Shown piece by piece: positions 645-22,099 of a stretch of 64,000 nucleotides of DNA. The notes under the pieces are model-generated. The model was not told where the DNA came from. It saw only the letters and a list, made by a program, of their open reading frames with translations, and ran no database searches. The number at the start of each line of letters is the position of its first letter. Within the stretch, counting starts at the first letter, position 1. This DNA is from a virus, in IMG/VR virus record IMGVR_UViG_3300049178_000049. One strand, given 5' to 3'. Both the position numbers and the translations under genes were made by a program.

Positions 645-1160
645 CTACGGCATGACCACGGAGCGCAAGACCTCGTGGTCGGTGACAGGTAACGGAATGC
701 GGTGTAGCCCTTTGCCTGCGCGCCATGGCAGCCACAACGCGTTATTGCGCTCGTCGGCTACGACGATCTCCTGATAGCGCATGGCCGTCCTGAATCGTGG
801 TTCGTCGGTGACGGGGCAGTCCATCGTCAGGAGCACGTTGTGCCTGCCCTCCGTGTAGAGCTCCACGCGGCGGCTTGCGTCCACAGGGTCGACGGTTCCA
901 TCTGGACGCCGGGTGGGCATGGTCACACGCTGCTCCCAGGTCCATCTCTCGGGCTGGCAGCACACCACGTTCACGTAGTCCTCGGTCATGGGCGTGGCCA
1001 GGAGCTGCGCGTAGTGCTCCCATCGGCCAGACAGGCCACCTGTCATCGACCCGATGCGCACGGGAGCGATGCGGAGCAGGCCGCTCAGGTATCCCAACGC
1101 CAGCATCCCGATGGGCGAGGAGTCGGTGGTGGCAAGGTAGCGGATGAAGCGGCGGGGCAT
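645..1160 (-). CDS. Hypothetical protein, possibly a degenerate glycosyltransferase (GT-B) N-terminal domain
   Basis: Start MPRRFIRY overlaps the upstream stop (TGATG); weak resemblance to GT4 N-terminal lobes. Confidence 0.35.
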   Translation of the reverse strand: MPRRFIRYLATTDSSPIGMLALGYLSGLLRIAPVRIGSMTGGLSGRWEHYAQLLATPMTEDYVNVVCCQPERWTWEQRVTMPTRRPDGTVDPVDASRRVELYTEGRHNVLLTMDCPVTDEPRFRTAMRYQEIVVADERNNALWLPWRAGKGLHRIPLPVTDHEVLRSVVMP

Positions 1161-1318
1161 CACTTCCTCCAGAAGAGGAGCCACGCTGCCACGGCCGCAA
1201 TCGCGAGCTTGACCGGCGTGGACAGGCCACCCGTCGCGCTCTCCACGGCCGCGTCGTCTCCGACATACATCAACTGGTCTACGCCGCGGGCGGCCGGCTT
1301 GTGGTAGGTGATCTTCAC
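1160..1318 (-). CDS. 52-aa tail-anchored membrane protein with VGDD motif (missed by ORF track)
   Basis: My translation: MKITYHKPAARGVDQLMYVGDDAAVESATGGLSTPVKLAIAAVAAWLLFWRK; GTGA and TGATG overlaps with both neighbours. Confidence 0.8.
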   Translation of the reverse strand: MKITYHKPAARGVDQLMYVGDDAAVESATGGLSTPVKLAIAAVAAWLLFWRK

Positions 1319-1683
1319 GAAGCGCCCTTGGGCGGATCTGGGACGGCACCGATGGTTAGCATCGGGATCCGTACGGGCCCGTCCGGCACGTTCGGGTAGA
1401 TGCCCATCATCTTCTCGATCTCAAGGAGCGCCGCCTCAATCACCCGGTTGTCGATGTTCTGCGTCTCACCGTCCAGTCCCGAAAGGAGGACGGTCCCGCG
1501 AGCAATGCAGTCGCCAATATCTCGCACCGTTAGACCGGCGACAATCTGTCTCCCGCGCTCGCCATGCGCGGTCCACGGCTGACCGTCGTAGGGACGATCA
1601 CGAGCGCCACCCCAATCCTGCCCGGCAAGCAGGCGCTCCATACTCTCTGGCGTGTAGTCACCCTCGTTGTCGAACACCAGCAC
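1315..1683 (-). CDS. Hypothetical protein
   Basis: Coupled between neighbouring genes; plausible composition. Confidence 0.6.
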   Translation of the reverse strand: MLVFDNEGDYTPESMERLLAGQDWGGARDRPYDGQPWTAHGERGRQIVAGLTVRDIGDCIARGTVLLSGLDGETQNIDNRVIEAALLEIEKMMGIYPNVPDGPVRIPMLTIGAVPDPPKGAS

Positions 1684-2436: not shown

Positions 2437-2458
2437 GGCATCACCATGCCACAACTTC

Positions 2459-2686: not shown

Positions 2687-2752
2687 GGAGCAAAGGTACC
2701 GTAGCCGGAGGTGGTGCGGATCGGGTAACGTGACAGCGGAAAGGAGTTCGAC

Positions 2753-3590: not shown

Positions 3591-4202
3591 TCAGCTGCTG
3601 AACAGCAGCCACAGGAACAGTGCGGCGCCGCCCACCAAAAGCACAGTCCCCAGGGTGCCCATCGAGGCGCCCGACAGCCAGGCCAGCGGGTCGTTGTTGT
3701 TTGTGAAGTTGTCCTCGCCCGCCGCGAAGTCTGGCACGGGCTTGTCCCGCACTTCCCAATGGGTGTGATTGGCCGAACTGGTCACGCCCACCTGGTCGCC
3801 TGCCACCACCTGCGCCCCCATCGGCGCCATCGAAGATGTCGCCGGCTCGAGGTGCGCCAGGAGATGGAACTTTCCGCTGTCATCCCCCTGGATGATGATG
3901 AACCACGGCCCGTAGCCGACAAACGGTGCAGCGGCGCCGCTGCCTACGGCGACCACAGTACCGCTCTCTGGGGCCACCACGGAGGTTCCAGCGGTGCCGG
4001 CGACATCCACTCCGGGGTGCTTGCACGGGTAGCCATGGACCCCACAGGAACCATCTGCGGGCGTGGCGCGCGCCTCGAGCCATCCCCCGTGCGCCCCCAC
4101 CTCGAGCGGGTAGACGGGCGGCTGGGGTCTGCCCGGTTCGGGCGTGGCTGTATCAACGGGCGTCGCGCCCAGCGCGCGACGCTGAATGCGGGCGTATGTC
4201 AT
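3591..4202 (-). CDS. M23 family peptidoglycan endopeptidase with C-terminal membrane anchor
   Basis: HPGVD (HxxxD) and HTH (HxH) zinc motifs; leader RRALGA; C-terminal TM helix. Confidence 0.85.
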   Translation of the reverse strand: MTYARIQRRALGATPVDTATPEPGRPQPPVYPLEVGAHGGWLEARATPADGSCGVHGYPCKHPGVDVAGTAGTSVVAPESGTVVAVGSGAAAPFVGYGPWFIIIQGDDSGKFHLLAHLEPATSSMAPMGAQVVAGDQVGVTSSANHTHWEVRDKPVPDFAAGEDNFTNNNDPLAWLSGASMGTLGTVLLVGGAALFLWLLFSS

Positions 4203-4211
4203 GTTGTTCGT

Positions 4212-6816: not shown

Positions 6817-6817
6817 C

Positions 6818-7989: not shown

Positions 7990-8004
7990 AGCGGCGCTAA
8001 TCCG

Positions 8005-8265
8005 CTACTCCTTCTTCCGCCTCAACAGCAGGAACGCCCCCAGCGCCAGTCCCCCGATGAGCAGCACGCTCGTCGTGCTGGTCCCCTGCTGCGCTGCGAG
8101 CGCCGCCTGCAGATCACGGTTGCTCTGCGCAGCCGCGCCCTGCGCCTGTTGTGTCGAGCCGTAGATCTGCAGCACCGAGCCGGCATCGCTGATGAGCGTG
8201 TCGAACCAACTACCCATGCCGGAGTAGCCGGACCGAACCACCATGTCGTTCCTCATGTACGCCAT
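8005..8265 (-). CDS. Tail-anchored putative virion membrane protein
   Basis: Leader ...SGMGS; C-terminal TM plus RRKKE. Confidence 0.75.
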   Translation of the reverse strand: MAYMRNDMVVRSGYSGMGSWFDTLISDAGSVLQIYGSTQQAQGAAAQSNRDLQAALAAQQGTSTTSVLLIGGLALGAFLLLRRKKE

Positions 8266-8270
8266 GGCGC

Positions 8271-8711
8271 TCAACTCCGCCGCGCCAGCAGCACCGCCGC
8301 CAGGACTCCAGCGCCAGCCAGAGCCAGGAGGGTCGTGGTGGACATGCCGGACTGCGCTGGCATGATCACCGCTGGTTGCGGCGCCAGACCCGCGCCGAAT
8401 GCCTTCGCGATCGCGGAGAGAATGCCGGTACCGCTGTCCGAACTCGTGGGGGCACCAGGCGGGCTACCCGCCGGATGGGCCGGATCCGGGTCGACCGCGT
8501 AGCCCGGAGCCCGGTACGTCGACCCATCGGCGTTGAACGTGGTCATCCCACCGTCGGGGGTCGCACAGTAGTTGCCGGGCTTCCGGTACGGGTCGCCCAG
8601 CGGGATCTCGGAGCACTGGGTGGAGTCCGAGTAGTCGCCCATGCCCAGAAGGCCGCGTCGGCGGATAGCGGGGCGGGGTGCGGGGGTGCGGACGCGCTTG
8701 AAGTAGGACAT
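8271..8711 (-). CDS. Tail-anchored putative virion membrane protein
   Basis: MSYFKR...RRRGLLGMGD; C-terminal TM plus RRS. Confidence 0.8.
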   Translation of the reverse strand: MSYFKRVRTPAPRPAIRRRGLLGMGDYSDSTQCSEIPLGDPYRKPGNYCATPDGGMTTFNADGSTYRAPGYAVDPDPAHPAGSPPGAPTSSDSGTGILSAIAKAFGAGLAPQPAVIMPAQSGMSTTTLLALAGAGVLAAVLLARRS

Positions 8712-8714
8712 GGG

Positions 8715-8963
8715 TCACTCCTTGGACCAAAGCCAGTATGCCAGATACGCCAGCCCGCCCCAAAGCACGTACTGGATCAGGCCGGACGAGGCGACCGGGG
8801 CTGGAGCCGTGGTCGGCGGCATGGCTACAGTCGGGACAATTGGCACTACGATGGGCGGCGACATGCCGCCGGGCGACACGATGGTGCCCGTCGCGTCGTC
8901 GCCCATGCTTCCGCGACGGACCATGAACGACGACCGCGGCGTCTTGCGCATGGCGTAGCTCAC
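8715..8963 (-). CDS. Tail-anchored putative virion membrane protein
   Basis: GTG start MSYAMRK...RRGSMGDD; C-terminal TM. Confidence 0.8.
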   Translation of the reverse strand: MSYAMRKTPRSSFMVRRGSMGDDATGTIVSPGGMSPPIVVPIVPTVAMPPTTAPAPVASSGLIQYVLWGGLAYLAYWLWSKE

Positions 8964-9580
8964 GATGACGACCTCTTGCGAAAGAACAGGAAATAGGCGG
9001 CGAGGGCGGCGCCTCCCGCGATGAGCACGTTCCGCATCGTGTTGTCGCTCGACGGAGCGACCATGGCCGGTTCGCCTGTGTCCAGCGTGGGGATCGGGGG
9101 GATCGGCAGAGAGATCGGCGCTGGGCCCATGGCTACGCCGACATTGCTCGCGCCCCCTCCGCCCCCGCCTCCGGCATCCGTCGAAGACGACGGTGGTGCT
9201 GGTGTCGGTGGTGGCAAGAGCGTGCCCGGATCTACCGGCTGCGGGCGCGGCGCCGGGCCGACGTTCGACACGGTGTACGCGGGCGGTGGCTGCGGGGTGA
9301 TGTCCGTCGATGTGGTGACCGAGGTGTACGTCGCGCCGGGCGTGAAGCCAATCTTGTACGTTCCGGATGGAGTGCCGGTGGCGACCCCGGCACCTGCTGC
9401 ACCTGGGTCCATGGCCACCAGTCCCAGCGCCCCGCGCGCGATGCTCGCCATGGCACGATCCCTGGCTCGGGTCGCCCGCGCTCGCCGCAACTGCAGCGCC
9501 CGCCGCCCCGGCGAGTTGTCCGCCGACGCGATAGCGCGCACGCCGCGGGTCGCGCGGTCCGGGTCCCGCATGTACGACAT
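8960..9580 (-). CDS. Pro/Thr-rich tail-anchored putative virion membrane protein
   Basis: MSYMR basic leader...GALG; C-terminal TM plus RKR. Confidence 0.8.
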   Translation of the reverse strand: MSYMRDPDRATRGVRAIASADNSPGRRALQLRRARATRARDRAMASIARGALGLVAMDPGAAGAGVATGTPSGTYKIGFTPGATYTSVTTSTDITPQPPPAYTVSNVGPAPRPQPVDPGTLLPPPTPAPPSSSTDAGGGGGGGASNVGVAMGPAPISLPIPPIPTLDTGEPAMVAPSSDNTMRNVLIAGGAALAAYFLFFRKRSSS

Positions 9581-9921
9581 CAGTGGTGGCCCCCGTGCCC
9601 ACCATGATGGCCACCGCCATGGCGCCCGGACCCGAAGCTACCCCACGACGGCCCCCAACCCCGGGGACCGTACAAGTCGTAGCTGTCGTCGGGCTGCACG
9701 ATGACGACGGCAGGAACGATGGCGCTGGCACCGGCCTGGGAAGCGTCGGTCGCGGCAGCGATGTCCGCCGACGAAGCGTCGGTTCCCGACGAGGCAGGCG
9801 TGGTCGCGGTGACCGCAGCAGTCGAGGCTGAGGTCGATGCCGCCTGCGACGCTGCACTCTTCTTGTAGAAGTAGTAGCCCGCCGCTGCGGCCCCGATCAG
9901 CCAGAGAGTTGACGTCTTCAT
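9580..9921 (-). CDS. N-anchored Ala/Ser-rich membrane protein with His/Gly tail
   Basis: MKTSTLWLIGAAAAGYYFYKK; coupled stop/start. Confidence 0.7.
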   Translation of the reverse strand: MKTSTLWLIGAAAAGYYFYKKSAASQAASTSASTAAVTATTPASSGTDASSADIAAATDASQAGASAIVPAVVIVQPDDSYDLYGPRGWGPSWGSFGSGRHGGGHHGGHGGHH

Positions 9922-9923
9922 GG

Positions 9924-10253
9924 TCACTTCCTTCCCAGTTCGTAGCCGATCCACATGGGGATACCGATGGCCGCAAGCAGGGCCACCGGATACACCCACT
10001 TGTTCTGCTGGGCGTAGACGTAGCCGCGTAGGACCGGCAGAGCGTTCTGGATCCATGGCATTCCGATACCGGGCGGCGTCTCGGCGCAGACGCCCACTGG
10101 TTGGCCCCGATCGATGGCCTGGAGTTGCTGGATGCGGCAGACGACCTCGGGCATCGCCGGATCGCTGGCGACATCGAGCACCGTTCCGATGGTGCCAACG
10201 ACATCCCCCATGGCCTGGGAGGGTAGGCGTTTGCGGTAGCGCTGGTAGCTCAT
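9924..10253 (-). CDS. Tail-anchored putative virion membrane protein
   Basis: MSYQRYRKR...AMGD; C-terminal TM plus RK. Confidence 0.8.
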   Translation of the reverse strand: MSYQRYRKRLPSQAMGDVVGTIGTVLDVASDPAMPEVVCRIQQLQAIDRGQPVGVCAETPPGIGMPWIQNALPVLRGYVYAQQNKWVYPVALLAAIGIPMWIGYELGRK

Positions 10254-10397
10254 GGTTTGCCTTTCGTGGCGAGCCCGCCTGGGGTCGCCCGTCGCTGGGT
10301 CGACGCCTTTTCCGGGATTTGAGGTTCGACGTGGGAAAGGAGACCACGGCGCTCTCATCGCCGACTTGCATCGACGAGCGGCCTCAGGCGGGCTTGA

Positions 10398-10997
10398 TCA
10401 CGACCTCCCTTTCCTGTCGAAGGCGTGCTTGACGCCGAGTTTCTCCCACGCGAACCACGCCAGCGCCAGGACGCCGCCTGCCTTCAGCCAGAAGCCATAG
10501 TCCGTGCACGCACCAGCCTCGATGCATGCGGTCTGCTCCTGGTTCTTCGCCACATCCGCCGCCGACGAGATAGCGGTCGTGGTCACCAAAAGGAGCCCGC
10601 CGACGATGAGCACCGGCCACAGCCATGGGTGCCCACCTGCACTGAGGATGCCGCCGGTCGGCGACGGGCTCGAAAGCGTGGAGGGGCCGGCCAGCGCGAC
10701 CTGCGCGAGTTGCACCGCGCCGGCGGGGTTGACCGACAGATCGGCGACGGGGAGTGTCTGTCCCGGCATGAGTGCGGCGAGGAGCACCGAGAGCTTGGTG
10801 GCCAAGTCCTGCTCGATGGCCATGTCGCGCTGCGCCACGACACGCTGCGCATAGGCCAAGGGCCTGCGCACCTTGGCGGTTCCGGCGGTGACCTGATCGT
10901 TGAGCGCTCGGTACTTGAGCCACGAGGCCAGGCTGCCCCGCATCCTGGCGAGCTCGGCGGCGGCCCTCTGGACGTCTTGCGTGGTGATGGCGGTCAT
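10398..10997 (-). CDS. Putative virion membrane protein with two TM helices
   Basis: Two hydrophobic helices near the C-terminus; coupled start. Confidence 0.75.
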   Translation of the reverse strand: MTAITTQDVQRAAAELARMRGSLASWLKYRALNDQVTAGTAKVRRPLAYAQRVVAQRDMAIEQDLATKLSVLLAALMPGQTLPVADLSVNPAGAVQLAQVALAGPSTLSSPSPTGGILSAGGHPWLWPVLIVGGLLLVTTTAISSAADVAKNQEQTACIEAGACTDYGFWLKAGGVLALAWFAWEKLGVKHAFDRKGRS

Positions 10998-12177: not shown

Positions 12178-12247
12178 GTTGTCTCCCTTGCGGGGTATCT
12201 CCCGGCAAGCCGGGGTAGCATCACGCCAGGGAAACCCCGGCGGTGGC

Positions 12248-13002
12248 CAACTCGTGAACTCGGTAGAGCGCCCGACCAGCCGGTCAAGGCCAATCGGGCG
12301 CCGGGGCGGTCACTGCACGTCGCGAGTTTGCAAACCGTCGAGCATAAACAGAATGTTCAGGATGTCGTCCGTGTCAGCAGCGTTCAGCCCGTTGAGGGCG
12401 CTCGTCGTGCCGATCGCGAAGAAGTCCGCCTGGGCGGCGAAGTTCTGCCGGACGGGCACGATGATCGGCCTCGCGAGCTTCAGGATCGATGCCTGCTCCG
12501 GGGTGCCGTGCGAGAAGATCGACGCGGTGGAGTCGAAGCCCCACACGCCGCCGCCCGCCGGGTAGTACCAGCACGGCGCCTGGAACATCGGCTTGGTGCC
12601 AACGACCAGCGTCCAGAACAGCTGCGACGTCACGTTCAGGTAGTTGTCCCGACGGTTCGGCCCGTCGAAGAACATGAAGCAGCGCAGGGCCAGGATGACG
12701 TACGTCTGATCCGAGGCGAGTTGGCCGGCGGTCTGGAGGTTGGTCAGCGCCAGGTTGCCGATGTTGGCGTTGCCGAACAGCTTGGTGCTGTTCACGATGG
12801 GGGTGGCCGGGGCGCCCGTGGAGCGCACCAGCGTATCCCAGAGCGGCTGGTGGAGCCGCTCGCGGTATCCGTGGAGACGAGGCATCGAAGAGTTCCTTTG
12901 CGGTACGTTTGATTCGGCGACCGGGGAGGGATTTCCGCTGTCACCTGGCTGGGACCGCCAGCCACAACTCGTGAACTCGGTGTTCGATCTCGTGAACTCG
13001 GT
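12248..13002. repeat. Three copies of CTCGTGAACTCGGT flanking capsid gene A (12251-12264, 12968-12981, 12989-13002)
   Basis: Read directly; the first two share 17 identical nt (CAACTCGTGAACTCGGT). Confidence 0.9.
12310..12885 (-). CDS. Putative single jelly-roll major capsid protein A
   Basis: Beta-strand-rich, 191 aa; PLWDT...LF...TNL...GQL motif; strong RBS; flanked by structured intergenic regions; next to Arg-rich core gene. Confidence 0.55.
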   Translation of the reverse strand: MPRLHGYRERLHQPLWDTLVRSTGAPATPIVNSTKLFGNANIGNLALTNLQTAGQLASDQTYVILALRCFMFFDGPNRRDNYLNVTSQLFWTLVVGTKPMFQAPCWYYPAGGGVWGFDSTASIFSHGTPEQASILKLARPIIVPVRQNFAAQADFFAIGTTSALNGLNAADTDDILNILFMLDGLQTRDVQ

Positions 13003-13009
13003 CTACCGG

Positions 13010-13025
13010 CGCACCGCGCGGTGCG
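13010..13025. terminator. Perfect 16-bp palindrome CGCACCGCGCGGTGCG just after the core-protein stop; candidate terminator or processing hairpin
   Basis: Perfect dyad followed by TTTT on the plus strand. Confidence 0.4.
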
Positions 13026-13032
13026 TTTTGGA

Positions 13033-14514
13033 TCAGCCCCCGCCGCCGAACTTGCCGCCGAAGATGCCCGCGTACAGATCAGCAGATGCGTCGAATGCGG
13101 GCGTCACGCCCGGGATCCCCTTGGTGAAGGAGCGGGCAGGGATCGGCTGGATGAACGCCTGGGACGGGACCTGCTTCAGCATGGCCATGGAGCCGCTGGT
13201 GGGGCCCGGCAGGCCACCCAGGAGCACGTTGCCGAGCTCCTCGTCGACGCCCAGTTCCTCCTCCACTCCCATGCCCAGTTCCTGCTCCACGCCATCGGCG
13301 CCCACGGCCACGTAGTCGGACATGGTGATGCGCTCGTTGAGGGGTGGCGCTGCACCGACGGCCACGTAGTCGCCCATGTTGACGTAGTCGCCGACCGCCG
13401 ACTGAATGCTGGCCGGGGCAAACGCCGTCCAGAGCGAGGCCAGCGCCTGGAAGCCCGCGCCCATCATGGCCTGCTCACGGTACCTCGAGAGCGCGCCCAC
13501 CTTCTTCGTAACGAAGTTGGTGAGCAGCAGCGAGGCCACGGACAGCACGGGCCCCTGCAGCGTGCCCAGCGAGGACACGACCGGCAGCATGGGGCCGAAC
13601 TTGTTCACGACCATCCGGTTGGCCAGGAACGAGACGGCCACGGGGATGACGCGCTTGAGCTCGGTGAAAATGTCCCCGATGCCGGGATTCCGGCGGTACC
13701 GACGGTAGGATCGCCGACGCCCGCGCCGGTGCGACCGCCTGCGCCGCACGGTGTATCCGCGCCGGTGCGACCGCCGCCGCTTCCGGCGCCGACGCCCGGG
13801 GTTCATCCGGACGGTGGTGGCCTCGGGGCCCATCAGCATGTGCAGCCGCCGCGAGGACATCCGCTTGGTGGCGCGGCGCCCCTTGCGACGCCGCCGACTG
13901 GGCCGGGTCACCCGCACGCCATGAATGGTGGTGTGTACCGTACGGCGACGGCGCCTCCGCGACGCATGACTGCGGCGCGCGCGAGCGCGCTTCCGGTGCA
14001 CCGACTTCCGGGCGCGGCGCTTCTTGCCGCCCCCCGACCGGCGCGCACGCCGACGCTTGGTGCGGCCCAGCGCGCCCATCTTGCCGGCGCGCTTGCGGGC
14101 CCTCCAGTACCGCTTCATGGCGGCGCTTCGCTTCTTCGACCCTTTGGCCATTGAATTGCTCCTGGGGCTGCGGTTCTTGCGGCTGCGCCAGCCCTTGAGC
14201 GCTGCCCGTCGCCGTTTCTTGACCGCCCACGGGTGGGCGTTGCCGGCGCGGCGCCGCCCGGCGGGATTCCTTCGATGCTTCGCCCAGTAGTCCCTCAGCG
14301 GCTTGGGCATGCGATGACGCCGCCGGGTGCGGGTGCCGTGCTTCGCCCAGTAGCGGGCGAGTGCGACCGGCTGGCGAGCCTTGCGTCGCTTGTGATGCGG
14401 CGGGCGATCCGGCGCCCCGTAGCGGGGCCGACGCTTGCGAGCGGGGTTGCTCACCGCCGCGCTGCCACGGATCCGCAGCCCGCGACGCTTGCCGTTGACG
14501 AAGAGGATGGGCAC
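13033..14514 (-). CDS. Arg-rich (protamine-like) core protein with membrane domain and acidic tail
   Basis: About 275 N-terminal residues dominated by R/K/H with four NP motifs, then a hydrophobic helical domain, then GDYV/ELG repeats; probable GTG start. Confidence 0.8.
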   Translation of the reverse strand: MPILFVNGKRRGLRIRGSAAVSNPARKRRPRYGAPDRPPHHKRRKARQPVALARYWAKHGTRTRRRHRMPKPLRDYWAKHRRNPAGRRRAGNAHPWAVKKRRRAALKGWRSRKNRSPRSNSMAKGSKKRSAAMKRYWRARKRAGKMGALGRTKRRRARRSGGGKKRRARKSVHRKRARARRSHASRRRRRRTVHTTIHGVRVTRPSRRRRKGRRATKRMSSRRLHMLMGPEATTVRMNPGRRRRKRRRSHRRGYTVRRRRSHRRGRRRSYRRYRRNPGIGDIFTELKRVIPVAVSFLANRMVVNKFGPMLPVVSSLGTLQGPVLSVASLLLTNFVTKKVGALSRYREQAMMGAGFQALASLWTAFAPASIQSAVGDYVNMGDYVAVGAAPPLNERITMSDYVAVGADGVEQELGMGVEEELGVDEELGNVLLGGLPGPTSGSMAMLKQVPSQAFIQPIPARSFTKGIPGVTPAFDASADLYAGIFGGKFGGGG

Positions 14515-14758
14515 GAGATCGACACCGCGCGCATCCCCAACTTTAGTCAACCCCCTATTTTCGATTTCCTGTCAGTGGAAATCGCGCAACTACCTGATAG
14601 TATGTCCTGGCATCCTGCTGCCCCGGATGCCCAGACCGCCGGAACGTGAGCAAGCGCGCAAGTACGACGGCCATACCTACCGGCTGGGAATAAAGTTCGG
14701 AGGGATCCCGCAAGGGCGTTAAGGGCTTCCAGGACGCCTCCCTGGCAAGCAGCGGAGT

Positions 14759-15097
14759 TCAGTTCGGAGGGTCGTCGATCGTGTATGGGACGTAAGTGCC
14801 ATCAGGGCGAAGGAAGGCCCGGGTCGCTCCTTCGAGATGGGGGTCCGGGCCCCGTAATTCCCTGGCCGTGTGAATCGTTCGACATCGAGGGCATTCCACC
14901 GTCTGGCCGACTTTAACTCGTGCCGGGTGAAACACAGCGATCAGCCGACCTCGACTGAACCCGCAGCAAAGCAGCGGAATGAACCCGCGCTCGTTGATCA
15001 GCTTTGCCAGAAGCGGCTCGCCGATGTCATCCCATGAGCCGTTGACGACAACGAGATCGTCATAGCGAATCGTCTTGAGGTTGGCCCATTCATTCAT
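14759..15097 (-). CDS. Zn-ribbon hypothetical protein
   Basis: CC and CPRC motifs. Confidence 0.55.
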   Translation of the reverse strand: MNEWANLKTIRYDDLVVVNGSWDDIGEPLLAKLINERGFIPLLCCGFSRGRLIAVFHPARVKVGQTVECPRCRTIHTARELRGPDPHLEGATRAFLRPDGTYVPYTIDDPPN

Positions 15098-15109
15098 GGA
15101 GCCACAGTA

Positions 15110-15337
15110 TCACGGCTTGCTCGCGGCCTCTCGGGCCTCCTTCACCGCCACCATGAGGCTGTCATCCTCCTCCACCGGCAACCTGATGATGCCGGAACTC
15201 GGGTTCATGTGGTCAAGCTCGGTGGCCAGGCGGTCGGCCGATCTGCCTACCGCCATGCACGAGTCGATCGCCCGAAGGCAGGCTGCCTCCACCCTCGCAT
15301 TCACAACGCTACTCCCCTCGGGGAACTTCCTGGGCAT
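15110..15337 (-). CDS. Hypothetical protein
   Basis: GGAG RBS; coupled. Confidence 0.5.
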   Translation of the reverse strand: MPRKFPEGSSVVNARVEAACLRAIDSCMAVGRSADRLATELDHMNPSSGIIRLPVEEDDSLMVAVKEAREAASKP

Positions 15338-15349
15338 GGTCAACTCCTT

Positions 15350-15760
15350 CTAGTGCGGTGTTCTGCGCGGCCGGATCAGGTAGTCGTAGATCTTGTCCAT
15401 GACCGCTGCAACCTTGCTGGAGGCCTCGGCCGCCTTCTGGGCGACGCTCTCCATGTTCTCGGCGTATTCGCGCCGGGCGAGCGCCTCGTTCTCTCGGGCC
15501 TCCTTGTAGAGCGTCTCAAGCGTCGAGTGGTACTTCGCCTCGTACTCCGCCCGGAGATCGATCTGGAAGCGCTCGAGGCGCACGCGCTCTGCCGCCCACG
15601 CCTCACGCTCCTTGGCCCATGTCTCGCGTTCCCTGCCGTGATCTTCCGCTCGCTTGCTGTAGTAGCGGAACAGGTAGGCGATAACGCCAGCCAGCGCCAA
15701 GATCGCGGCGATCAACAGCGGGATGAGCGAGGTCGGAACGGGTGGCTCAGCAACGGGCAT
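15350..15760 (-). CDS. N-terminal TM plus coiled-coil protein (holin-like)
   Basis: Single TM helix followed by charged heptads. Confidence 0.5.
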   Translation of the reverse strand: MPVAEPPVPTSLIPLLIAAILALAGVIAYLFRYYSKRAEDHGRERETWAKEREAWAAERVRLERFQIDLRAEYEAKYHSTLETLYKEARENEALARREYAENMESVAQKAAEASSKVAAVMDKIYDYLIRPRRTPH

Positions 15761-15763
15761 GTG

Positions 15764-16315
15764 TCATCCATCGATTCCGCGCGCGAACACGCCCAGCGCC
15801 CCGCCCCACATCATGGCCAGGACGGTCTTCCTGGACTGGATGACCATGAGGCACTTCCCATCTGGGGTGGTGTAGAGGTCGGGTAGCGGGTCTCGTCCCT
15901 CGACCTCGCACCGTTCTCCATCCTCGTCCTCGAAGCAGAACCCCAGGCAGAACCCCAGGCGAGTAAGCGCCGAGATCTCGATGAACTCCCTGGGAACATC
16001 CACTTCGCCTCCGTTCGCATCCTGGCGGGTTGGGAGGTAGCACACCACGCCAGCGTCATGCTCGTGGATGTAGTTGACCGGGCGGCTCGGCCTTTTGAGC
16101 GTCTCGGGATCCACTTTGCCCGAGCGGTAGGTGACGAACTTGGCGGGCCCAGCGCGGTAGACCACATCCGGAATCCGGAACGACGACCGGAACTCGCCGA
16201 TCTGCCGGGGATCGAAGCGATGAAACTCCTGGTACTTGGCGACCGCCTGTTCAGCGTCGGCTTTGCGACTTGCCGCAAGTGCCTTCAGGAATGCCTTGGA
16301 TGCGGGCCGACTCAT
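15764..16315 (-). CDS. Hypothetical virion-module protein
   Basis: Y.EFH...P...Y.HEH...P.L pattern; coupled within the structural operon. Confidence 0.65.
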   Translation of the reverse strand: MSRPASKAFLKALAASRKADAEQAVAKYQEFHRFDPRQIGEFRSSFRIPDVVYRAGPAKFVTYRSGKVDPETLKRPSRPVNYIHEHDAGVVCYLPTRQDANGGEVDVPREFIEISALTRLGFCLGFCFEDEDGERCEVEGRDPLPDLYTTPDGKCLMVIQSRKTVLAMMWGGALGVFARGIDG

Positions 16316-17049
16316 CGGATCTCAGGCTCCAGAACATTGGTCCACAACCAGTAGGCGCCGAGGGCCAGGGCACCCCACTTGAGCACGTTGTAGATGTCCT
16401 GCAGATGGTCGACGACCGTCAGGGCGTCCTCGCCGATCTGCAGCACGGTCCCAGCTACGGCCCTCACCAGGGTCCACGCCTTGTCGAACGCGGACTGGAA
16501 CGCGGCCAGTGCTCCGACCCACCAAGGTGTGATGCAACCGATCACCAGGGCCGTGGCCATGGCATTCGAGGCCGCTCCCAGGGAGTCCGTCACCCAGCGC
16601 TTGAGCCCCACAGCGTTGATGGCACGCGTGCCCTGCGCATCGGCCTGATTCGCCGCCTGTAGGTAGTCGATGGATTTCTTTCCGGCGTTGGACAGATCGT
16701 CAGTCGCCTGCATGACGCTGTCCTGCGATGCGTTCGGCTCCTTGGCGGCCTGGTCGACCAGCGCTTGCGCTTGGCTGATCGTTGCCATGACCGAGCTGAC
16801 GATCGACCGGATGTCGCTCGCCGTGTAGAATCCAGTGGGTTGCCAGTTCTGGGCGAGGTCATTCACCCTGGCATCGAAGGGGGCCGTGGCGTCATTGGCC
16901 TGATTCAGGCAGCCTCCGATCACGGAGGGGGGCGCAGATTGCGTGTCATCCTGGTAGATCAGGACCCCAGAGACCGGATCGTAGATGTCGTCGCCGAGCG
17001 ACCGTCGTCTAACGTAGCGACGCGGAGGCGCCTTCCTGAGGTAACTCAT
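16312..17049 (-). CDS. Helical tail-anchored putative virion membrane protein
   Basis: MSYLRK...RRRSLGDD; C-terminal TM. Confidence 0.8.
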   Translation of the reverse strand: MSYLRKAPPRRYVRRRSLGDDIYDPVSGVLIYQDDTQSAPPSVIGGCLNQANDATAPFDARVNDLAQNWQPTGFYTASDIRSIVSSVMATISQAQALVDQAAKEPNASQDSVMQATDDLSNAGKKSIDYLQAANQADAQGTRAINAVGLKRWVTDSLGAASNAMATALVIGCITPWWVGALAAFQSAFDKAWTLVRAVAGTVLQIGEDALTVVDHLQDIYNVLKWGALALGAYWLWTNVLEPEIR

Positions 17050-17342
17050 CGAAGTGTCCTCCATGCGACGTAGGCAATGGCCGCGTAGGCGAGGAGCGTG
17101 GTCGGATCCCAGGAGCCATCGGCCCCACCCAGGCTGGCGATCCTGCCCTGGGGCAGAAACCCGGTGCCGACTCTTCGTGCGGAGGTTGGCAGTTTCCAGG
17201 CGGCGCGCTCGGCCGTCGCGCCGATCTCGCCCATCGCTCGAGGGACCGGGGGAGAACCGGCGTGGGTTCCTCCAGCGCCCGGGGCCTCGTAGTAGTCGAA
17301 GGCGTGCCGATCGTAGTTGTAGACCGAGTATCGCATGGGCAT
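17046..17342 (-). CDS. Tail-anchored putative virion membrane protein
   Basis: AMGE and SLGG motifs; C-terminal TM. Confidence 0.7.
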   Translation of the reverse strand: MPMRYSVYNYDRHAFDYYEAPGAGGTHAGSPPVPRAMGEIGATAERAAWKLPTSARRVGTGFLPQGRIASLGGADGSWDPTTLLAYAAIAYVAWRTLR

Positions 17343-17576
17343 TCATCGCAGGGACGCAGCACATAGCGCCGCGAATTCCAGAGCTGCCGGAGATACCTCT
17401 CGGAGGACCGTTCCGCCGCGCTGACCAATGGCGGCTGTCACAGCCATCCATAACTCGATCAATTCATCCGGCGAATTTACGTCGACCCGAAGTGGCTCAC
17501 GCGTCGAACCATTGACCGAGACAAGCGTCACCACTCCACCATGAGGCGCAACCCTGGTCAGGTAGTTCTTGGGCAT
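17343..17576 (-). CDS. Small hypothetical protein
   Basis: MPKNYLTR; start overlaps upstream TAA. Confidence 0.55.
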   Translation of the reverse strand: MPKNYLTRVAPHGGVVTLVSVNGSTREPLRVDVNSPDELIELWMAVTAAIGQRGGTVLREVSPAALEFAALCAASLR

Positions 17577-17965
17577 TACCGCCTCCGCTTCTTGGCGAAG
17601 TGCCACACCAGGAGCGCGCCAACACCAATCGTGATCCATCCCCCGGGCACGGCGTCCGAGATGTCCGAAAGCGCTGGGCTGGCTGGCGCGTTGGTCCCGC
17701 ACCCACAAGTCCCGCTGCAACTGCATCCCCCCATCGCCTCGTAGATATCGCCCATGCCCTGCGTCATGCGCTGGTTGGACACGCCGATCGGCTCGGGTGC
17801 CCCCGGGGCCGGGAGGATCGTCGAGCCGTACAGGGTCGGCGTGGACAACGACGACTCCTCCAGGATGCCAAGCGCTTGGGCGTCCGCTGCCTTGGCCTGA
17901 ACGGGAGAGCCGTGGCCCCAGCGAATGAGCGGTCCCCCGCGGTAGGTGTAGCCGTAGTTCCTCAT
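17576..17965 (-). CDS. Tail-anchored putative virion membrane protein with Cys cluster
   Basis: QGMGD...CSCSGTCGC; C-terminal TM plus KKRRR. Confidence 0.75.
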   Translation of the reverse strand: MRNYGYTYRGGPLIRWGHGSPVQAKAADAQALGILEESSLSTPTLYGSTILPAPGAPEPIGVSNQRMTQGMGDIYEAMGGCSCSGTCGCGTNAPASPALSDISDAVPGGWITIGVGALLVWHFAKKRRR

Positions 17966-18315
17966 GCTTGGCTCTCCATCTTGGCGATTGGCCAGCGCGT
18001 CCACTTCGGACCACCGTTGTAGCCGCAGCACATCACCTTGCCCTTCCACTCACAGCCCGGGGCTGAACAGGAGCGCTGAATGCTACCGCGAGTTAGGTGA
18101 CCGTTCACGCAATGGAACGAACGTGTCAGGCAGTTGTCGTCGTGATCATGGCCCGGTGGAGAGTAGTGGCCGACCGTCTTTTCGCAGACGAGACCGCCCC
18201 AAGCGAACGGTCCTCCGCAGTGGGGACACGCCGGCGGCGGCTCAATTGCGGTCACGGACACGGGCGGTTCTTCCGTGGGCACGAATAGCGACCCCTTGCG
18301 CTCCCATCCGATCAT
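17962..18315 (-). CDS. Cys/His-rich Zn-binding protein
   Basis: CPHC, C...C, CxxxxC motifs; coupled. Confidence 0.55.
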   Translation of the reverse strand: MIGWERKGSLFVPTEEPPVSVTAIEPPPACPHCGGPFAWGGLVCEKTVGHYSPPGHDHDDNCLTRSFHCVNGHLTRGSIQRSCSAPGCEWKGKVMCCGYNGGPKWTRWPIAKMESQA

Positions 18316-18557
18316 GGGCAGGGCTTTCTTTCGCCGTACCCTTGCGCCAGCGCGACCGGCACGGCCACTACCGGGAACCACCGCCCCGCGAGGCCGTAGA
18401 TCAGCGCCCAGACGAGCGAGCCGGTCCGCTTGTACCCGTGGTAGGTCAGCGCGATGGTCGCGCCCGTGCTCACGCCCTCCGAGGTGAGGATGTCATGGAT
18501 GGTCGAGCTTGTGGTCGAAGGCGGCGTCGCCGCGTCGCCCATGGGTTGCAGGTACAT
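18312..18557 (-). CDS. Small membrane protein
   Basis: MYLQPMGD; hydrophobic helices. Confidence 0.75.
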   Translation of the reverse strand: MYLQPMGDAATPPSTTSSTIHDILTSEGVSTGATIALTYHGYKRTGSLVWALIYGLAGRWFPVVAVPVALAQGYGERKPCP

Positions 18558-19246
18558 CAGCGCCTCCGCGTGGTGGGGATGGTCCGCCTGGAACGCCGCT
18601 TCTTGACCAGCACGTACCCCAGCCCGCCAGCGACACCCAGAAGGGCGAGCTTGCCGACATCCGACATCCCCGCCAGCGAGCCAAGGATGCCAGCGTCCGG
18701 TGCCAGCACGGTCTTACCGCTCTTGGTCACGATGGTCGGCGGCGAGATAGACAGGGTCGGGCCGCTGACCGTGGCCGGCGCACCGAGCGCGTCCGCGAAC
18801 ACCTGAATCTGCTGCCCCAGGACATCCACATCGGCCGCGATGTTCAGACATGTCGAAGCATCGCCCATGATTTGGCCCGAGGGTGCCGCCGCCTGCACCT
18901 TCTTGAACAGCGCCATCGTAGCAGGGCCCACCGCCCCGTCGGTCGAGATCTTGGAGTAACCCTTGGCCTGGGCGACGCGGTTGAGTTGCAGCTGGAACGC
19001 CCGCGAGGCGGCGAGGGCCGGGAAGTTCCTCGGCTTGCAGACGCCATTGATGTTGATGAAGTCCGCGATCGATGTCGAGGTCCCGGTCGTCGTCTGATTC
19101 ACGTCATCCGAGGGGTCGGCCTGGGAGGCATCCACCGCGCCAGATGCGCTCATGAAGCTTCCGAACTCGTCCGTCAGGCGAAGGAAAGGATCGGTCACCA
19201 GATCCGTTGCATCGCCCAGCGATTGCCGCTTCATGAGGTAGGTCAT
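18557..19246 (-). CDS. Tail-anchored protein with peptidoglycan-binding (PG_binding_1-like) domain
   Basis: KRQSLGD leader; FQLQLN...DGAVGPAT motif; C-terminal TM plus KKRR. Confidence 0.7.
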   Translation of the reverse strand: MTYLMKRQSLGDATDLVTDPFLRLTDEFGSFMSASGAVDASQADPSDDVNQTTTGTSTSIADFININGVCKPRNFPALAASRAFQLQLNRVAQAKGYSKISTDGAVGPATMALFKKVQAAAPSGQIMGDASTCLNIAADVDVLGQQIQVFADALGAPATVSGPTLSISPPTIVTKSGKTVLAPDAGILGSLAGMSDVGKLALLGVAGGLGYVLVKKRRSRRTIPTTRRR

Positions 19247-19698
19247 AGCGCGCTCCTTCGCTTGCTGAAGTGACGATAGAGCAAGTACGCCGCCACCCCG
19301 TAGGTGACGATACCGCCGGGGACGTCCGGCAGGAAGTCCAGTGGTCCGCTCACCGCAATCGGCATCGGCGCGGTGACCGGGGGCGGCGAGAGGTTCATCC
19401 CACGATCGCGCGCCCCCAGGACCGCTTGGATGTTGGCGCCCCAGGTCATCCTCTCCCAGTTGGGCCCGACGATCTGTAGCAGCGCTGCGGCCGTCGGCGC
19501 ATCCAGGTAGCCCGTGTTGGCCACGTCGGTCGCCCCCATCTGGTAGAGCAACTGCTGGAGGTGCCGGACCATGTTGATGACCATCGGGGTCTTGGGGTCC
19601 GTGGTCGCCGGCGCGATCATCAGGTACGGGATCGCCTGTGTGGCGTTGTGTTGCCCCATGCCGATGGCGTTCAGGAGATCGCGAGAGGTCTGCTTCAT
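19243..19698 (-). CDS. Tail-anchored protein with PG-binding-like domain
   Basis: IGMGQ leader; VRHLQQLL...G...TG.LD..T..AL; C-terminal TM. Confidence 0.6.
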   Translation of the reverse strand: MKQTSRDLLNAIGMGQHNATQAIPYLMIAPATTDPKTPMVINMVRHLQQLLYQMGATDVANTGYLDAPTAAALLQIVGPNWERMTWGANIQAVLGARDRGMNLSPPPVTAPMPIAVSGPLDFLPDVPGGIVTYGVAAYLLYRHFSKRRSAL

Positions 19699-21512
19699 GG
19701 CGTTGCCTTCTTGGGTCTGGTCAGCAGGGCCGCTACGACGACCGCCCCGCCGACCATCACCCAGGGCCAGATGGAGTGTCGAGGTGCCACCACTGGCGGC
19801 GGGGGTGGCTGCCCGCATTGCGAGGCCGCGAGAGCAACGCCTGCGGTGCCCGCCTGCGGCGGAATGCCGTAGGCCGCCGCCGCCGCCCCTGCGGCGGTGC
19901 CGGCAGCTGGATTACTGAGGACGTCGCAGGCAAGATTCCCCAGGATCGGAGCGACTCCCGCCGACACGGATGCGATGGCCTGCAGCGCCGTCAGGGGGTT
20001 GATCAGGATCATCGGATTCCAGAGCGCGCCGAAGATGTTCGGATCAGGGACCGACGAGAGCCACACTTTCAACACCAAGGGATTGGTCTTCGACCAGTCA
20101 CCTCTTGTAAGGTCCATCGGCGAAAGCGAAACCACCAGCGCCATGTTGGCCCCGGTCTTGATGTGCGTGGTCCTCGCCAGGGGCGCGCCGGCCGTCTTCA
20201 GGTTCCAGAGCGTGTGGAGGCGCACCGGCGTGCCTGACTGGATGCCTATCGCATCGAACCACGTCTTGGCATCGTCCGCTTGACCCTGCGACACATTGCC
20301 ATAGGCGTCGAACATGTAGCTCGACGGGTGCCGATTGCTCGCTGTGTCGAGATACGTCGTGGGCGTATCTCCGTTCCCGCTCGAGTCCTTGGCCTCGGTG
20401 AGCCGTGCCTTGAGCCATGCCAGCACCTCTGGGATCATCGGCCGGACGTTGGCGAGTTGAGGGCCTGCCGGCAGATCGCCGGGCGTCAGGTACATGATGT
20501 CCGGCGGCGCCGCGCGATTCGCGACGGTCGCGGATGGCGTCCCGACGCCCCAGACGCGCGGCGTGAACGTGGACGAATTGAACCCGAATGGCCCCACGAA
20601 CCAGTCGTAGGTCGGTCCATGGTCGGTGACGATCGGGGTGATTCCAGTGGTCGCCGCGACGGTCGCTGACGTGATAGCCCCCGACGGCGGCGTCGAGCAG
20701 AACGCCTGTATCGGCTGCCCCGCGGTGGCCCTCATCCAGTGACCCGGGATCCACTGGCCGTTCACCGTTGCGCCGTAGATCCACGTGAAGCCAGCGGGCG
20801 CTGGGGTACAGCCGGCTGGCACGGCATCGTCCCCCATCGCTCCCAGGAAGGCTGCGCAGCCATAGCACCCCAGGCCCAGGAGCGAGTTGACCTGGGGTGC
20901 CGTACGTCGGAGGCCCGTCGTGATGATTTCGGCCGTGATGCCAGTGGAAAGTGCGCGGGCCAGCGCCAGCGGGAAGGCGTTGGCCGGTGGAATCTTCTGC
21001 TGCTGCACGTAGCGGTTGAAGATGTCCGTCGTCCTGGTCCACAGGCTCTTGTCGATGGAGTCCAGGAAGGCGCGCATTGCCTTCTGGCGCTGGGGCTGGG
21101 GGATGGTCTGGAACCCCGAGATGATAAGTTGCGCCGCCTTCTGGCCGTAGCTGTCGAACGGCTCGCCCATCGGAGCGTCGCCCATGCCCGCCGGTTGCAC
21201 GGTAACCTGCTGGCCGCCGCCGGGAAGCGGGACCACGTTCGTGACGACCGGCCGCTTGTTCAGCCAGTGCGGGATCTGGCCGCCGTTGTACGTGCCGCGT
21301 GGTTGCCAGAACGTGGTGAACGCTCCCTGACCCGTGCCCTCATCCTTGATGTACTGCGGAACGTTGTAACCCGCCGTTCCATCGGTGGAGTCATCGTAGG
21401 TCCCGCGCGGCATCTGCTTGGTGACGAACGCCTGGCGCTGCAGGCCCTCGTCGCGGACGTTCTTGGGGAGCGCGAACCCTGCATCCCAGGCTGGTGGAAG
21501 GTTGTAGGCCAT
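19695..21512 (-). CDS. Large tail-anchored virion protein (~605 aa)
   Basis: Two N-terminal DEG....AF.T...PRGTY repeats; AGMGD and AMGDD internal motifs; C-terminal TM plus KK. Confidence 0.75.
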   Translation of the reverse strand: MAYNLPPAWDAGFALPKNVRDEGLQRQAFVTKQMPRGTYDDSTDGTAGYNVPQYIKDEGTGQGAFTTFWQPRGTYNGGQIPHWLNKRPVVTNVVPLPGGGQQVTVQPAGMGDAPMGEPFDSYGQKAAQLIISGFQTIPQPQRQKAMRAFLDSIDKSLWTRTTDIFNRYVQQQKIPPANAFPLALARALSTGITAEIITTGLRRTAPQVNSLLGLGCYGCAAFLGAMGDDAVPAGCTPAPAGFTWIYGATVNGQWIPGHWMRATAGQPIQAFCSTPPSGAITSATVAATTGITPIVTDHGPTYDWFVGPFGFNSSTFTPRVWGVGTPSATVANRAAPPDIMYLTPGDLPAGPQLANVRPMIPEVLAWLKARLTEAKDSSGNGDTPTTYLDTASNRHPSSYMFDAYGNVSQGQADDAKTWFDAIGIQSGTPVRLHTLWNLKTAGAPLARTTHIKTGANMALVVSLSPMDLTRGDWSKTNPLVLKVWLSSVPDPNIFGALWNPMILINPLTALQAIASVSAGVAPILGNLACDVLSNPAAGTAAGAAAAAYGIPPQAGTAGVALAASQCGQPPPPPVVAPRHSIWPWVMVGGAVVVAALLTRPKKATP

Positions 21513-21526
21513 CTTGGTTCCTTGGG

Positions 21527-22099
21527 TTAGGCCGCGACCGGCCAGACGGAAGCATCGACGATACGGCGTAGCATCTGCGGGGTCTTCTCGGCAGCGACCG
21601 GGTCCAGCACGATGCGGGTCCGGTTTCTGGGCTCGAGGGCCCGCGTGAACACGTGGCTGTGCTGGATGCGGCCGTCGTAGTACATGCGCTTGAAGGCGCA
21701 GGTGACGAAGTCCGGCTGCCCGCCAACCGACAGGATCGCAGACGCCAGCCAGAGCGCCCCGTCGTCGCAGTCGATGGACGGCCGATGACCGGCCAGGATC
21801 TGGCGGCTGATAATGTAGGGCGCCCGAACGAGCTCGGTCCGCCTGGGGTCCCGCATGTATCGGGTGCGCTGGAGCAGGCAATAGTACAGCGCCATGTACT
21901 CGGACGCGTAGTCCTTCGAGTCGAGGCCCTCGCACACTGCCTCGGCCAACTGGCGCGTCTCGAAGTGGTTGGCGTCGTCGAGCGCCGCCCTGCGCATGAC
22001 GTCGATGGTCTGCGGTGCCCCGAAGTAGCCGCTCCGGCTGGTCGGCGGCTCGTCGGCCATCCAGAACAGGCGCGACCCGCCGTACCCCAGACCGGACAT
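21527..22099 (-). CDS. Transglutaminase-like cysteine protease (candidate virion maturation protease)
   Basis: DCDD (Cys), SHVF (His), LDP (Asp) triad in the canonical order; alternative start at 22060. Confidence 0.8.
   Translation of the reverse strand: MSGLGYGGSRLFWMADEPPTSRSGYFGAPQTIDVMRRAALDDANHFETRQLAEAVCEGLDSKDYASEYMALYYCLLQRTRYMRDPRRTELVRAPYIISRQILAGHRPSIDCDDGALWLASAILSVGGQPDFVTCAFKRMYYDGRIQHSHVFTRALEPRNRTRIVLDPVAAEKTPQMLRRIVDASVWPVAA

Follow-up and report, generated by a model that had tools for sequence, protein, structure and literature searches.

The stretch of DNA analyzed here is IMG/VR virus record IMGVR_UViG_3300049178_000049, a sequence of 64,000 nucleotides with a G+C content of 65% (hereafter, the window). 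Tightly packed genes on the minus strand occupy a block from approximately position 1100 to 26100. Fifteen tail-anchored genes of the window encode proteins with an M-x-Y start, a junction motif of a hydrophobic residue, Gly and Asp, or both, and most have both elements together with a basic stretch. The block also holds the gene of a candidate processing protease (21527-22099). The original prediction, made from the letters of the window, had described such leaders as packaging or targeting tags that are removed at the Gly-Asp junction by this enzyme.

The leader genes and their conservation

In its full form, the leader is composed of Met, a small residue, Tyr, a usually Arg-rich stretch, a hydrophobic residue, Gly (Ser/Ala), and Asp (Gly/Ala). 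Gene ends were redefined from starts conserved across related genomes. Most member starts have a GGAG/AAGGA-like Shine-Dalgarno sequence 5-12 nucleotides upstream or a stop/start overlap. The 15 members are as follows, with lengths in amino acids (aa):

1160-1318, minus strand: tail-anchored 52-aa protein; leader (M)KITYHKPAARGVDQLMYVGDD
3591-4202, minus strand: M23-type peptidase, 203 aa, with a C-terminal anchor; leader MTYARIQRRALGA
8005-8265, minus strand: tail-anchored 86-aa protein; MAYMRNDMVVRSGYSGMGS; MAYMRNDMVV...GMGS
8271-8711, minus strand: tail-anchored 146-aa protein; leader MSYFKRVRTPAPRPAIRRRGLLGMGD
8715-8963, minus strand: tail-anchored 82-aa protein with a GTG start; leader (M)SYAMRKTPRSSFMVRRGSMGDD
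8960-9580, minus strand: tail-anchored 206-aa protein; start MSYMRDPDR, long basic leader, no clear junction (ALGL/VAMD)
9924-10253, minus strand: tail-anchored 109-aa protein; leader MSYQRYRKRLPSQAMGD
10994-11551, minus strand: tail-anchored 185-aa protein; 37-residue leader MTYMAPRDF...HQPVGD
16312-17049, minus strand: tail-anchored 245-aa protein; leader MSYLRKAPPRRYVRRRSLGDD
17576-17965, minus strand: tail-anchored, Cys-rich 129-aa protein; start MRNYGY, with M-[KR]-[YF] in relatives
18312-18557, minus strand: membrane protein, 81 aa; minimal leader MYLQPMGD
18557-19246, minus strand: tail-anchored 229-aa protein; leader MTYLMKRQSLGD
19243-19698, minus strand: tail-anchored 151-aa protein; atypical start MKQTSR, conserved I-G-[MVI]-G-x near residue 12-15
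19695-21512, minus strand: tail-anchored 605-aa protein; start MAY, two internal junction sites
61384-61728, plus strand: tail-anchored 114-aa protein outside the structural block; MSYFRRQRALSG...GSLGDD

All 15 members end in a hydrophobic helix that is usually followed by a basic tail. The anchors are alike, with the pattern hydrophobic-hydrophobic-x-G-G-x-x-L-x-x-aromatic-hydrophobic and then a K/R tail, for example VLIAGGAALAAYFLFFRKR and VLWGGLAYLAYWLWSKE (examples were drawn from the C-termini at 8005-8060, 8960-9030, and 3591-3650). The anchors may be the second half of an address code. An all-against-all BLAST of the members found similarity confined to the leaders and the C-terminal anchors, and the member proteins are therefore not paralogues.

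M-[ST]-Y starts are present in 8 genes, where 0.2 are expected from composition (approximately 75 genes). The sequence [LMVI]GD occurs within the first 50 residues of 9 out of 10 leader proteins, against an expected p of 0.05 per protein. Serine at position 2 is encoded by AGC, AGT, TCC, and TCG; both the AGY and the TCN family are used, so the constraint acts at the protein level. On these sequence counts, chance can be excluded as the source of the leader pattern.

The original prediction stands in its central observation, a shared leader on otherwise unrelated domains, and all of the motifs it listed are present in the window. Open reading frames (ORFs) exist at its positions, most of which mark the low, stop-codon ends of minus-strand ORFs rather than the motifs themselves; 21527 and 22099 bound the enzyme gene, the plus-strand gene begins at 61384, and several ORFs had been extended too far upstream. 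Its membership was incomplete, as 8005-8265 and 8960-9580, which fall in an apparent gap or short ORF, had not been resolved as genes and are added here. The positions of three motifs are corrected. The GMGD of 17576-17965 is at residue 71 (a conserved ALG is found near residue 32), and the GMGD and AMGDD of 19695-21512 are both internal, at residues 110 and 226.

The same block, in the same order, was found in nine IMG/VR contigs, of which four are complete, with terminal repeats and genome sizes of 75.6-86.4 kb. Three further relatives are contigs of 73-89 kb binned in metagenome-assembled genomes (MAGs) labelled Peribacteria, Galbitalea, and Myxococcales, labels that are unreliable as host assignments; judging from these labels alone, the hosts are probably bacterial. 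A distant relative with a G+C content of 43%, present in two ENA contigs of 83 and 112 kb (L041 and L042), has the same gene order: a scaffold-like gene, the enzyme, approximately 16 small tail-anchored genes, an Arg-rich gene, and genes for capsid-like proteins of 191 aa and 208 aa.

Conservation was scored in 68 orthologues with a resolvable start, from ten families and 12 genomes, with 92 segments of the same proteins as the control and the junction counted within the first 45 residues. M-x-Y/F is kept in 64 of the 68 orthologues. The junction [LMVIF]-G-[DG] is present in 51 of 68, compared with 10 of the 92 control segments. The motif conservation in homologs that had been proposed as a check is thus borne out. 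Leader length varies between 6 and 37 residues among orthologues and the leader sequence drifts too, with both end elements remaining. Variant junctions include LGG, MGG, FGA, LGA, [LM]SG, and MAD, which gives a consensus of a hydrophobic residue, a small residue, and then Asp or Gly.

The pattern can be followed within single families. In 18557-19246, [LMV]-G-D is kept in 9 out of 9 orthologues with leaders of 8-25 residues, such as MGYLSMGD and MTYMKSLVPGRPWNRGPLGPMGD. Orthologues of 10994-11551 have leaders of 10-37 residues that all end in [LMV]-[GA]-D; MTYLRPMGDD corresponds to the 37-residue leader of the window. Eleven orthologues of 16312-17049 begin with M-[ST]-Y and have the junction LGD, LGG, [LM]SG, or MAD followed by acidic residues. 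The eight orthologues of 8271-8711 have the junctions GMGD, GMGG, GFGA, AFGG, SGLG, and GLGT, and the leaders of 8005-8265 orthologues end in GVGD or GFGS. Orthologues of 8960-9580 in three complete relatives (G001-G003) begin with M[GSA]Y..D[RK].TRGVGA. The leader of 3591-4202, ending ...[AS]LGA-TPV, is kept in 6 relatives; this protein matches PHROG peptidase/endolysin families, and its orthologue in the complete relative G002 is a Peptidase_M23. The plus-strand gene 61384-61728 has orthologues in 4 out of 4 complete genomes, with M-x-Y...[AL]-[LA]-[SGA]-G.

The distant relative retains part of the code. Among its ORFs between the enzyme and the Arg-rich gene, which are all tail-anchored, 8 of 16 have a Tyr at one of positions 2-4 (M-Y, M-x-Y, or M-x-x-Y) and several have LFGD, LTGD, or AMGD. 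Its orthologue of 16312-17049 has MAYTLPRDRQRHRRHVRRMRQYRAMGD. Since gene order and part of the code persist at 43% G+C, base composition does not explain the pattern. Taken together, the alignments support a shared leader that is under selection.

Conserved Cys pairs or clusters occur in the mature domains of 8271-8711, 9924-10253, 18557-19246, 19695-21512, and 17576-17965, with patterns such as QCSEIP...NYCATP, VVCRIQ...VGVCAETP, and CSCSGTCGCG. They suggest disulfides or metal sites and bear on the side of the membrane on which these domains lie. A previously unlisted gene at 9580-9921 (minus strand) encodes a leaderless protein of approximately 113 aa. A membrane anchor (MKTSTLWLIGAAAAGYYFYKK) lies at its N-terminus, its middle is rich in Ser, Thr, and Ala, and its C-terminus is rich in Gly and His (GGGHHGGHGGHH).

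The transglutaminase-like enzyme and junction-like sites outside the leaders

Three further genes of the block bear on processing:

21527-22099, minus strand: 190-aa Cys-His-Asp enzyme, candidate processing protease; alternative GTG start at 22156
23111-24700, minus strand: scaffold-like protein with a coiled coil, encoded directly upstream of the enzyme; the coiled coil is followed by EALGDGEDGE (nt 23654-23662)
13033-14310, minus strand: Arg-rich, protamine-like protein (pI 12) with a hydrophobic domain and an acidic tail; start uncertain, up to 14550

The enzyme has 386 homologues, with 65-98% identity among the matches listed (120 of 386). It is 73-75% identical in relatives where the neighboring proteins are 40-60% identical, and ranks with the best conserved genes of the block. 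The enzyme and the leaders are both present in 12 out of 12 related genomes examined over the region. A second scan of viral contigs, made with the enzyme profile, yielded solely contigs already known from the capsid scan. Residues D110-C111-D112-D113, H149, and D166 are invariant in 25 sequences with 63-86% identity to the window protein. The AlphaFold2 (AF2) model has a pLDDT of 80, with residues 1-28 disordered, and its structural matches by VIA (Z) and Foldseek are the following:

3kd4, putative protease: VIA Z 14.8
Factor XIII, TG2, and TG3 cores: VIA Z 11-12
3isr, putative cysteine protease: VIA Z 11.0
PNGase: VIA Z 9.9
LapG: VIA Z 9.1; Foldseek probability 0.98-1.0
Vasohibin: VIA Z 8.6
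PeiP: VIA Z 8.5
CPR-C4 protease: VIA Z 8.4
AlphaFold DB transglutaminase-like clusters: Foldseek E 2e-9

The transglutaminase-like neighbor with a DCDD/H/D arrangement, as first read from the translation, is thus confirmed at the level of the model for its fold and at the level of the alignment for its predicted Cys-His-Asp triad. Solved relatives of the fold include the proteases 3kd4, 3isr, LapG, CPR-C4, and vasohibin. Peptide-bond hydrolysis, as against transamidation or other chemistry, is a candidate activity of the enzyme.

A profile of the enzyme searched against 1.8 billion representatives gave 186 clusters at E <= 1e-10, of which the best is the enzyme of the AT-rich relative. The enzyme has no Pfam family (E <= 0.01), no PHROG, and no PDB sequence match by profile (E <= 10). 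The fold matches listed include no structure of the adenain/Ulp1 type (clan CE), and the order of the triad differs from that of clan CE.

Sites resembling the leader junction are also found away from the N-terminal leaders. The two internal sites of the 605-aa protein (19695-21512) are the GMGD at nt 21177-21185 and the AMGDD at nt 20829-20837. Here hydrophobic-[GSA]-D is kept in an alignment of 7 orthologues with variable flanks, and the sites seem to fall on domain boundaries. In the Arg-rich protein, NPGIGD (nt 13672-13680) lies exactly at the border of the basic and hydrophobic parts, and relatives have NPGLGD or NPAGGD at that same border. Seven orthologues of the scaffold-like protein have LGD, AGD, IGS, LSD, FAGD, IGGD, and FGAE in one alignment column block. 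The disordered N-terminus of the enzyme contains a conserved hydrophobic-[SA]-G, which in the window is PMSGLGY at nt 22091-22099. Boundary sites in proteins that are not tail-anchored fit proteolysis better than a membrane-insertion signal. Because of these sites outside the leaders, a processing signal is preferred over membrane insertion or pure docking.

The scaffold-like gene and the enzyme are separated in the window by approximately 950 bp (22187-23028) of DNA. Relatives such as L003 lack it and have the two genes approximately 150 bp apart. In the window, this stretch contains a 141-aa ORF (22606-23028) for which no homologue was found among the fetched loci, and it looks like an insertion specific to the window genome.

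Possible roles of the leader

The reading we prefer, with a probability of approximately 0.5, is that the leader is an address tag trimmed by the co-encoded enzyme during particle maturation. The leader would be a common N-terminal tag for particle-bound proteins, acting jointly with the C-terminal anchor (a GG-containing helix, an aromatic end, and a basic tail) to mark them for the membrane of the particle. The particle would most likely combine a capsid of the jelly-roll type with a lipid membrane and a protamine-like DNA core. During maturation, the tag would most likely be cut off at or beside the junction by the transglutaminase-fold Cys-His-Asp enzyme. The same enzyme would also split the 605-aa protein at both internal sites and separate the DNA-condensing part of the Arg-rich protein from the hydrophobic part. 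It would further cut the scaffold-like protein and perhaps its own N-terminus.

Several points count against this reading. The junction is loose, and the permissive pattern [LMVIF][GSA][DGA] occurs in 56 of the 92 control segments; this pattern was dropped as a statistic because it is common in controls and the strict pattern alone discriminates, so the strict pattern and its position are relied on. One member, 8960-9580, is without a clear junction, and another, 19243-19698, is without an M-x-Y start. Proteolysis does not follow from the fold of the enzyme, which is shared by transglutaminases, PNGase, the cell-wall isopeptidases PeiP/PeiW, and proteins without enzyme activity such as Rad4. 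A complex prediction between residues 29-190 of the enzyme (supplied with an alignment) and the first 40 residues of 18557-19246 scored 0.00, which is evidence neither way. Cleavage, the enzyme that would perform it, the exact bond, and the virion location of the proteins are all inferred from the patterns described above. Membership of the virion, in particular, is inferred from gene order and from a moderate fold match of the capsid-like protein (Z 8.0, described below).

The leader could instead be an uncleaved docking motif that binds a common partner, such as the inner face of the capsid, the scaffold, or DNA, and is retained by the mature proteins. The enzyme would then have another task, for example cutting cell-wall peptides as the virus enters or leaves the cell, or forming cross-links between particle proteins. 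The leaders are basic, with a net charge of up to +6, and could bind DNA or acidic lipids; minimal leaders of 6-8 residues are short for a propeptide; and the solved relatives of the enzyme include wall isopeptidases (PeiP/PeiW, of archaeal proviruses) as well as true transglutaminases. However, sites at internal domain boundaries of multi-domain proteins are hard to square with an N-terminal docking motif, and strong conservation falls on the junction and not on the spacer. Wall cutting is already covered by the M23 peptidase and an SLT-like protein (ESGGN; no family match). Docking is considered unlikely.

Another possibility is an export or membrane-insertion signal read by the host, with any cut made by a host protease and the viral enzyme unrelated to it. 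The basic C-terminal tails suggest a cytoplasmic C-terminus, in which case the N-terminal domains would lie beyond the cell membrane and an export signal would be needed, and the conserved Cys pairs of several mature domains are often seen in exported proteins. Against this, the leaders have no hydrophobic core, Tat-type h-region, or lipobox Cys, and junction-like sites are also present in the soluble scaffold-like and Arg-rich proteins. The code is also kept over relatives of 43-69% G+C with probably different hosts, which fits a reader encoded by the virus. We regard a host-read signal as improbable.

Finally, genes of one block could be old duplicates and a 65% G+C content favors Arg, Gly, and Ala, but a non-functional relic of duplication or by-product of composition is barely credible given that similarity does not extend beyond the termini, the junction keeps its position while the spacer drifts, codons of both Ser families occur at position 2, the code is present in the 43% G+C relative, and the counts are far above expectation.

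Known classes of signal peptide were also considered, by reading the leader sequences. A lipobox was ruled out by the lack of a Cys after the junction, and a Tat or Sec signal by the lack of a hydrophobic core or stretch in leaders that are 6-37 residues long and Arg-rich. A prepilin leader was ruled out as no hydrophobic segment follows the Gly. The double-glycine type was ruled out as the leader is basic rather than acidic and its second-last residue is hydrophobic.

Under the preferred reading of a trimmed address tag, comparison can be made with several known systems. Phage T4 is a tailed phage whose soluble internal proteins carry a tag of approximately 10 residues; the prohead protease gp21, a serine protease of assemblin-like fold, then removes this tag by cutting after Leu/Ile-x-Glu. 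The tag, named the capsid targeting sequence (CTS), is conserved on diverse internal proteins and directs them into the scaffolding core (PMC3012670). By analogy, the T4 CTS is the closest functional counterpart in bacterial viruses, as both are short N-terminal tags on otherwise unrelated proteins of one virus. The leader described here differs in its hydrophobic-Gly-Asp junction, its Cys-His-Asp candidate of transglutaminase fold, and its mostly membrane-anchored cargo.

The closest analogue of the enzyme, as judged from fold (VIA Z 9.1) and the shared Cys-His-Asp order, is LapG, of the bacterial transglutaminase-like cysteine proteinases (BTLCP). LapG is periplasmic and calcium-dependent and acts on one class of adhesin substrates. 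LapA loses its N-terminal module when LapG cuts between Ala108 and Ala109, both of them small residues (PMC3032545). Unlike LapG, the window enzyme has no Pfam match and no signal peptide, and would have approximately 15-18 substrates.

Adenain, poxvirus I7, and pS273R of African swine fever virus (ASFV) trim core, scaffold-like, and membrane-associated precursors at short Gly motifs, and their substrates include Arg-rich DNA-condensing proteins. These proteases belong to clan CE, with the order His-Asp/Glu-Cys, and cut at (M/I/L)XGG-X, (M/I/L)XGX-G, AG-X, and GG-X. The likeness is in concept only, as the triad order here is Cys-His-Asp and no adenain-like fold match was obtained among the structures listed. 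Leaders of double-glycine bacteriocins also end in small residues and are cut by a cysteine peptidase, the papain-like C39; they are non-hydrophobic, have an acidic or amphipathic character and a terminal Gly-Gly, and work in conjunction with ABC export. In contrast, no C39 or ABC-transporter family is among the Pfam hits here.

The original prediction had framed the system as eukaryotic-virus-like. This wording is not supported, given the Cys-His-Asp order and the missing adenain-type match, and the label is unneeded because precedents exist in a bacterial virus (T4 CTS) and in bacteria (LapG). As an idea, a cleaved targeting tag is reasonable. To our knowledge, a transglutaminase-fold maturation protease has not been described for any virus. 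A targeting leader with a maturation protease is a known kind of system, and the lineage that surrounds it here may itself be new.

If the preferred reading is true, it would supply a simple rule, open to testing, by which a single virus marks more than 12 unrelated proteins for its particle, and a new enzyme family would join the short list of viral maturation proteases. The virion membrane proteins of the lineage could then be annotated from sequence alone. A leader of approximately 8-25 residues with a tail anchor could also serve as a cargo-loading tag.

The capsid-like proteins and the surrounding lineage

Two leaderless genes of the block encode conserved structural proteins:

12310-12885, minus strand: single-jelly-roll capsid-like protein (A), 191 aa; 70-99% identity in relatives
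11551-12177, minus strand: second conserved structural protein, 208 aa, adjoining the capsid-like gene; 58-93% identity in relatives

The capsid-like gene is the most conserved gene in the block. The 191-aa protein of the 43% G+C relative still has MPRLHG at its start and DGLQTRDVQ at its end. The AF2 model of the window protein (pLDDT 73) is a jelly-roll-like beta-sandwich. Its best match by two methods is a capsid protein of Sulfolobus polyhedral virus 1 (SPV1), 6oj0 (Foldseek E 1e-3; VIA Z 8.0, 5% identity), followed in VIA by further viral capsid proteins of the jelly-roll type, from SPMV (Z 7.6), PRD1 P3 (6.0), HCIV-1 (5.9), and P23-77 VP17 (5.6); these Z values fall in the range which that tool terms middling. 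No Pfam or PHROG match was found for this protein, and an atlas search pointed weakly to the capsid families of PM2 and PRD1. The 208-aa protein has no Pfam match, no clear lead in the atlas search, and one weak PHROG match to a family of unknown function (E 0.005). A diverged paralogue of the capsid-like protein (30-33% identity, with large insertions) is encoded at 1684-2454 on the minus strand and is conserved in at least one relative (L005:17673-18410). Its product could be a vertex or minor capsid protein.

No Walker A motif was found in plausible ORFs of the window or of the four complete relatives (G001-G004). In G002 (79 ORFs and three more that span the edges of the sequence pieces), the Pfam hits include no family of terminases, portals, HK97 capsids, tails, or ATPases, and none is among the 25 listed of 50 matched PHROG families. 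Prohead protease families are likewise missing from the Pfam hits and the 25 listed of 50 matched PHROG families (the 79 ORFs of G002 and the window proteins tested). The lack of a Walker A motif and of such family hits, together with the jelly-roll capsid-like protein and the Arg-rich protein, suggests a particle that is loaded without a packaging motor.

Among jelly-roll viruses with a membrane (SPV1, Sphaerolipoviridae, and PRD1-like viruses), SPV1 of the Portogloboviridae has the capsid protein that best matches 12310-12885. The match is moderate, and the SPV1 genome is approximately 20 kb, as opposed to 75-86 kb here. The International Committee on Taxonomy of Viruses (ICTV) profile of SPV1 describes no leader code. 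PRD1-like viruses and sphaerolipoviruses differ in their FtsK/HerA-type packaging ATPase, which was not detected in the window or the four complete relatives. The Arg-rich, core-like protein and the many membrane proteins of the lineage make the parallel between the particles suggestive.

Searches for the lineage elsewhere were negative. Across GenBank phages (50,697 records), no DNA match to 8000-22200 and no protein match to the capsid-like protein or the enzyme were obtained. The literature yielded no description of such a virus group or of a transglutaminase-like maturation protease in phages. Apart from the families noted above for single genes, no Pfam or PHROG family was matched in the block at approximately 1100-26100 when the window proteins were searched. 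The lineage looks unusual in having a jelly-roll capsid-like protein and an Arg-rich core-like protein, with no terminase or P-loop ATPase detected, and in its absence from GenBank phages. We propose, tentatively and with considerable doubt, that the contigs belong to a bacterial virus lineage not described before (75-112 kb, 43-69% G+C). Its particle would resemble that of archaeal portogloboviruses, with a single-jelly-roll shell, a lipid membrane, and protamine-condensed DNA loaded in the absence of a packaging ATPase, and its two-part code would be read and then erased by a transglutaminase-fold protease. A particle design described to date in archaeal viruses only could thereby prove to occur in bacterial viruses as well.

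Accessory genes of the window include a tyrosine integrase, DUF5131, GP88, and a C5 methyltransferase (Pfam), and the M23-type peptidase (PHROG); they are typical for bacterial viruses. The complete relative G002 encodes a protein with an Acb2/Tad1-hairpin domain (an anti-defence sponge family), a protein with an ice-binding-like domain, and a PAPS reductase. It also encodes a QueD-like enzyme, Dam and C5 methyltransferases, and a RusA-like resolvase, with no recognisable DNA polymerase or helicase among the matches listed.

The SLT-like protein is encoded on the plus strand at 40841-41662, outside the structural block. Its ESGGNF motif was read from the translation; it has a C-terminal anchor and no M-x-Y leader, and no Pfam or PHROG match was found for it. 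Within the block, 15764-16315 (minus strand) encodes a Cys-rich, soluble protein of 183 aa without a family match. This protein is 51-80% identical in relatives and has a counterpart in the AT-rich relative; it may act in assembly or be located at a vertex.

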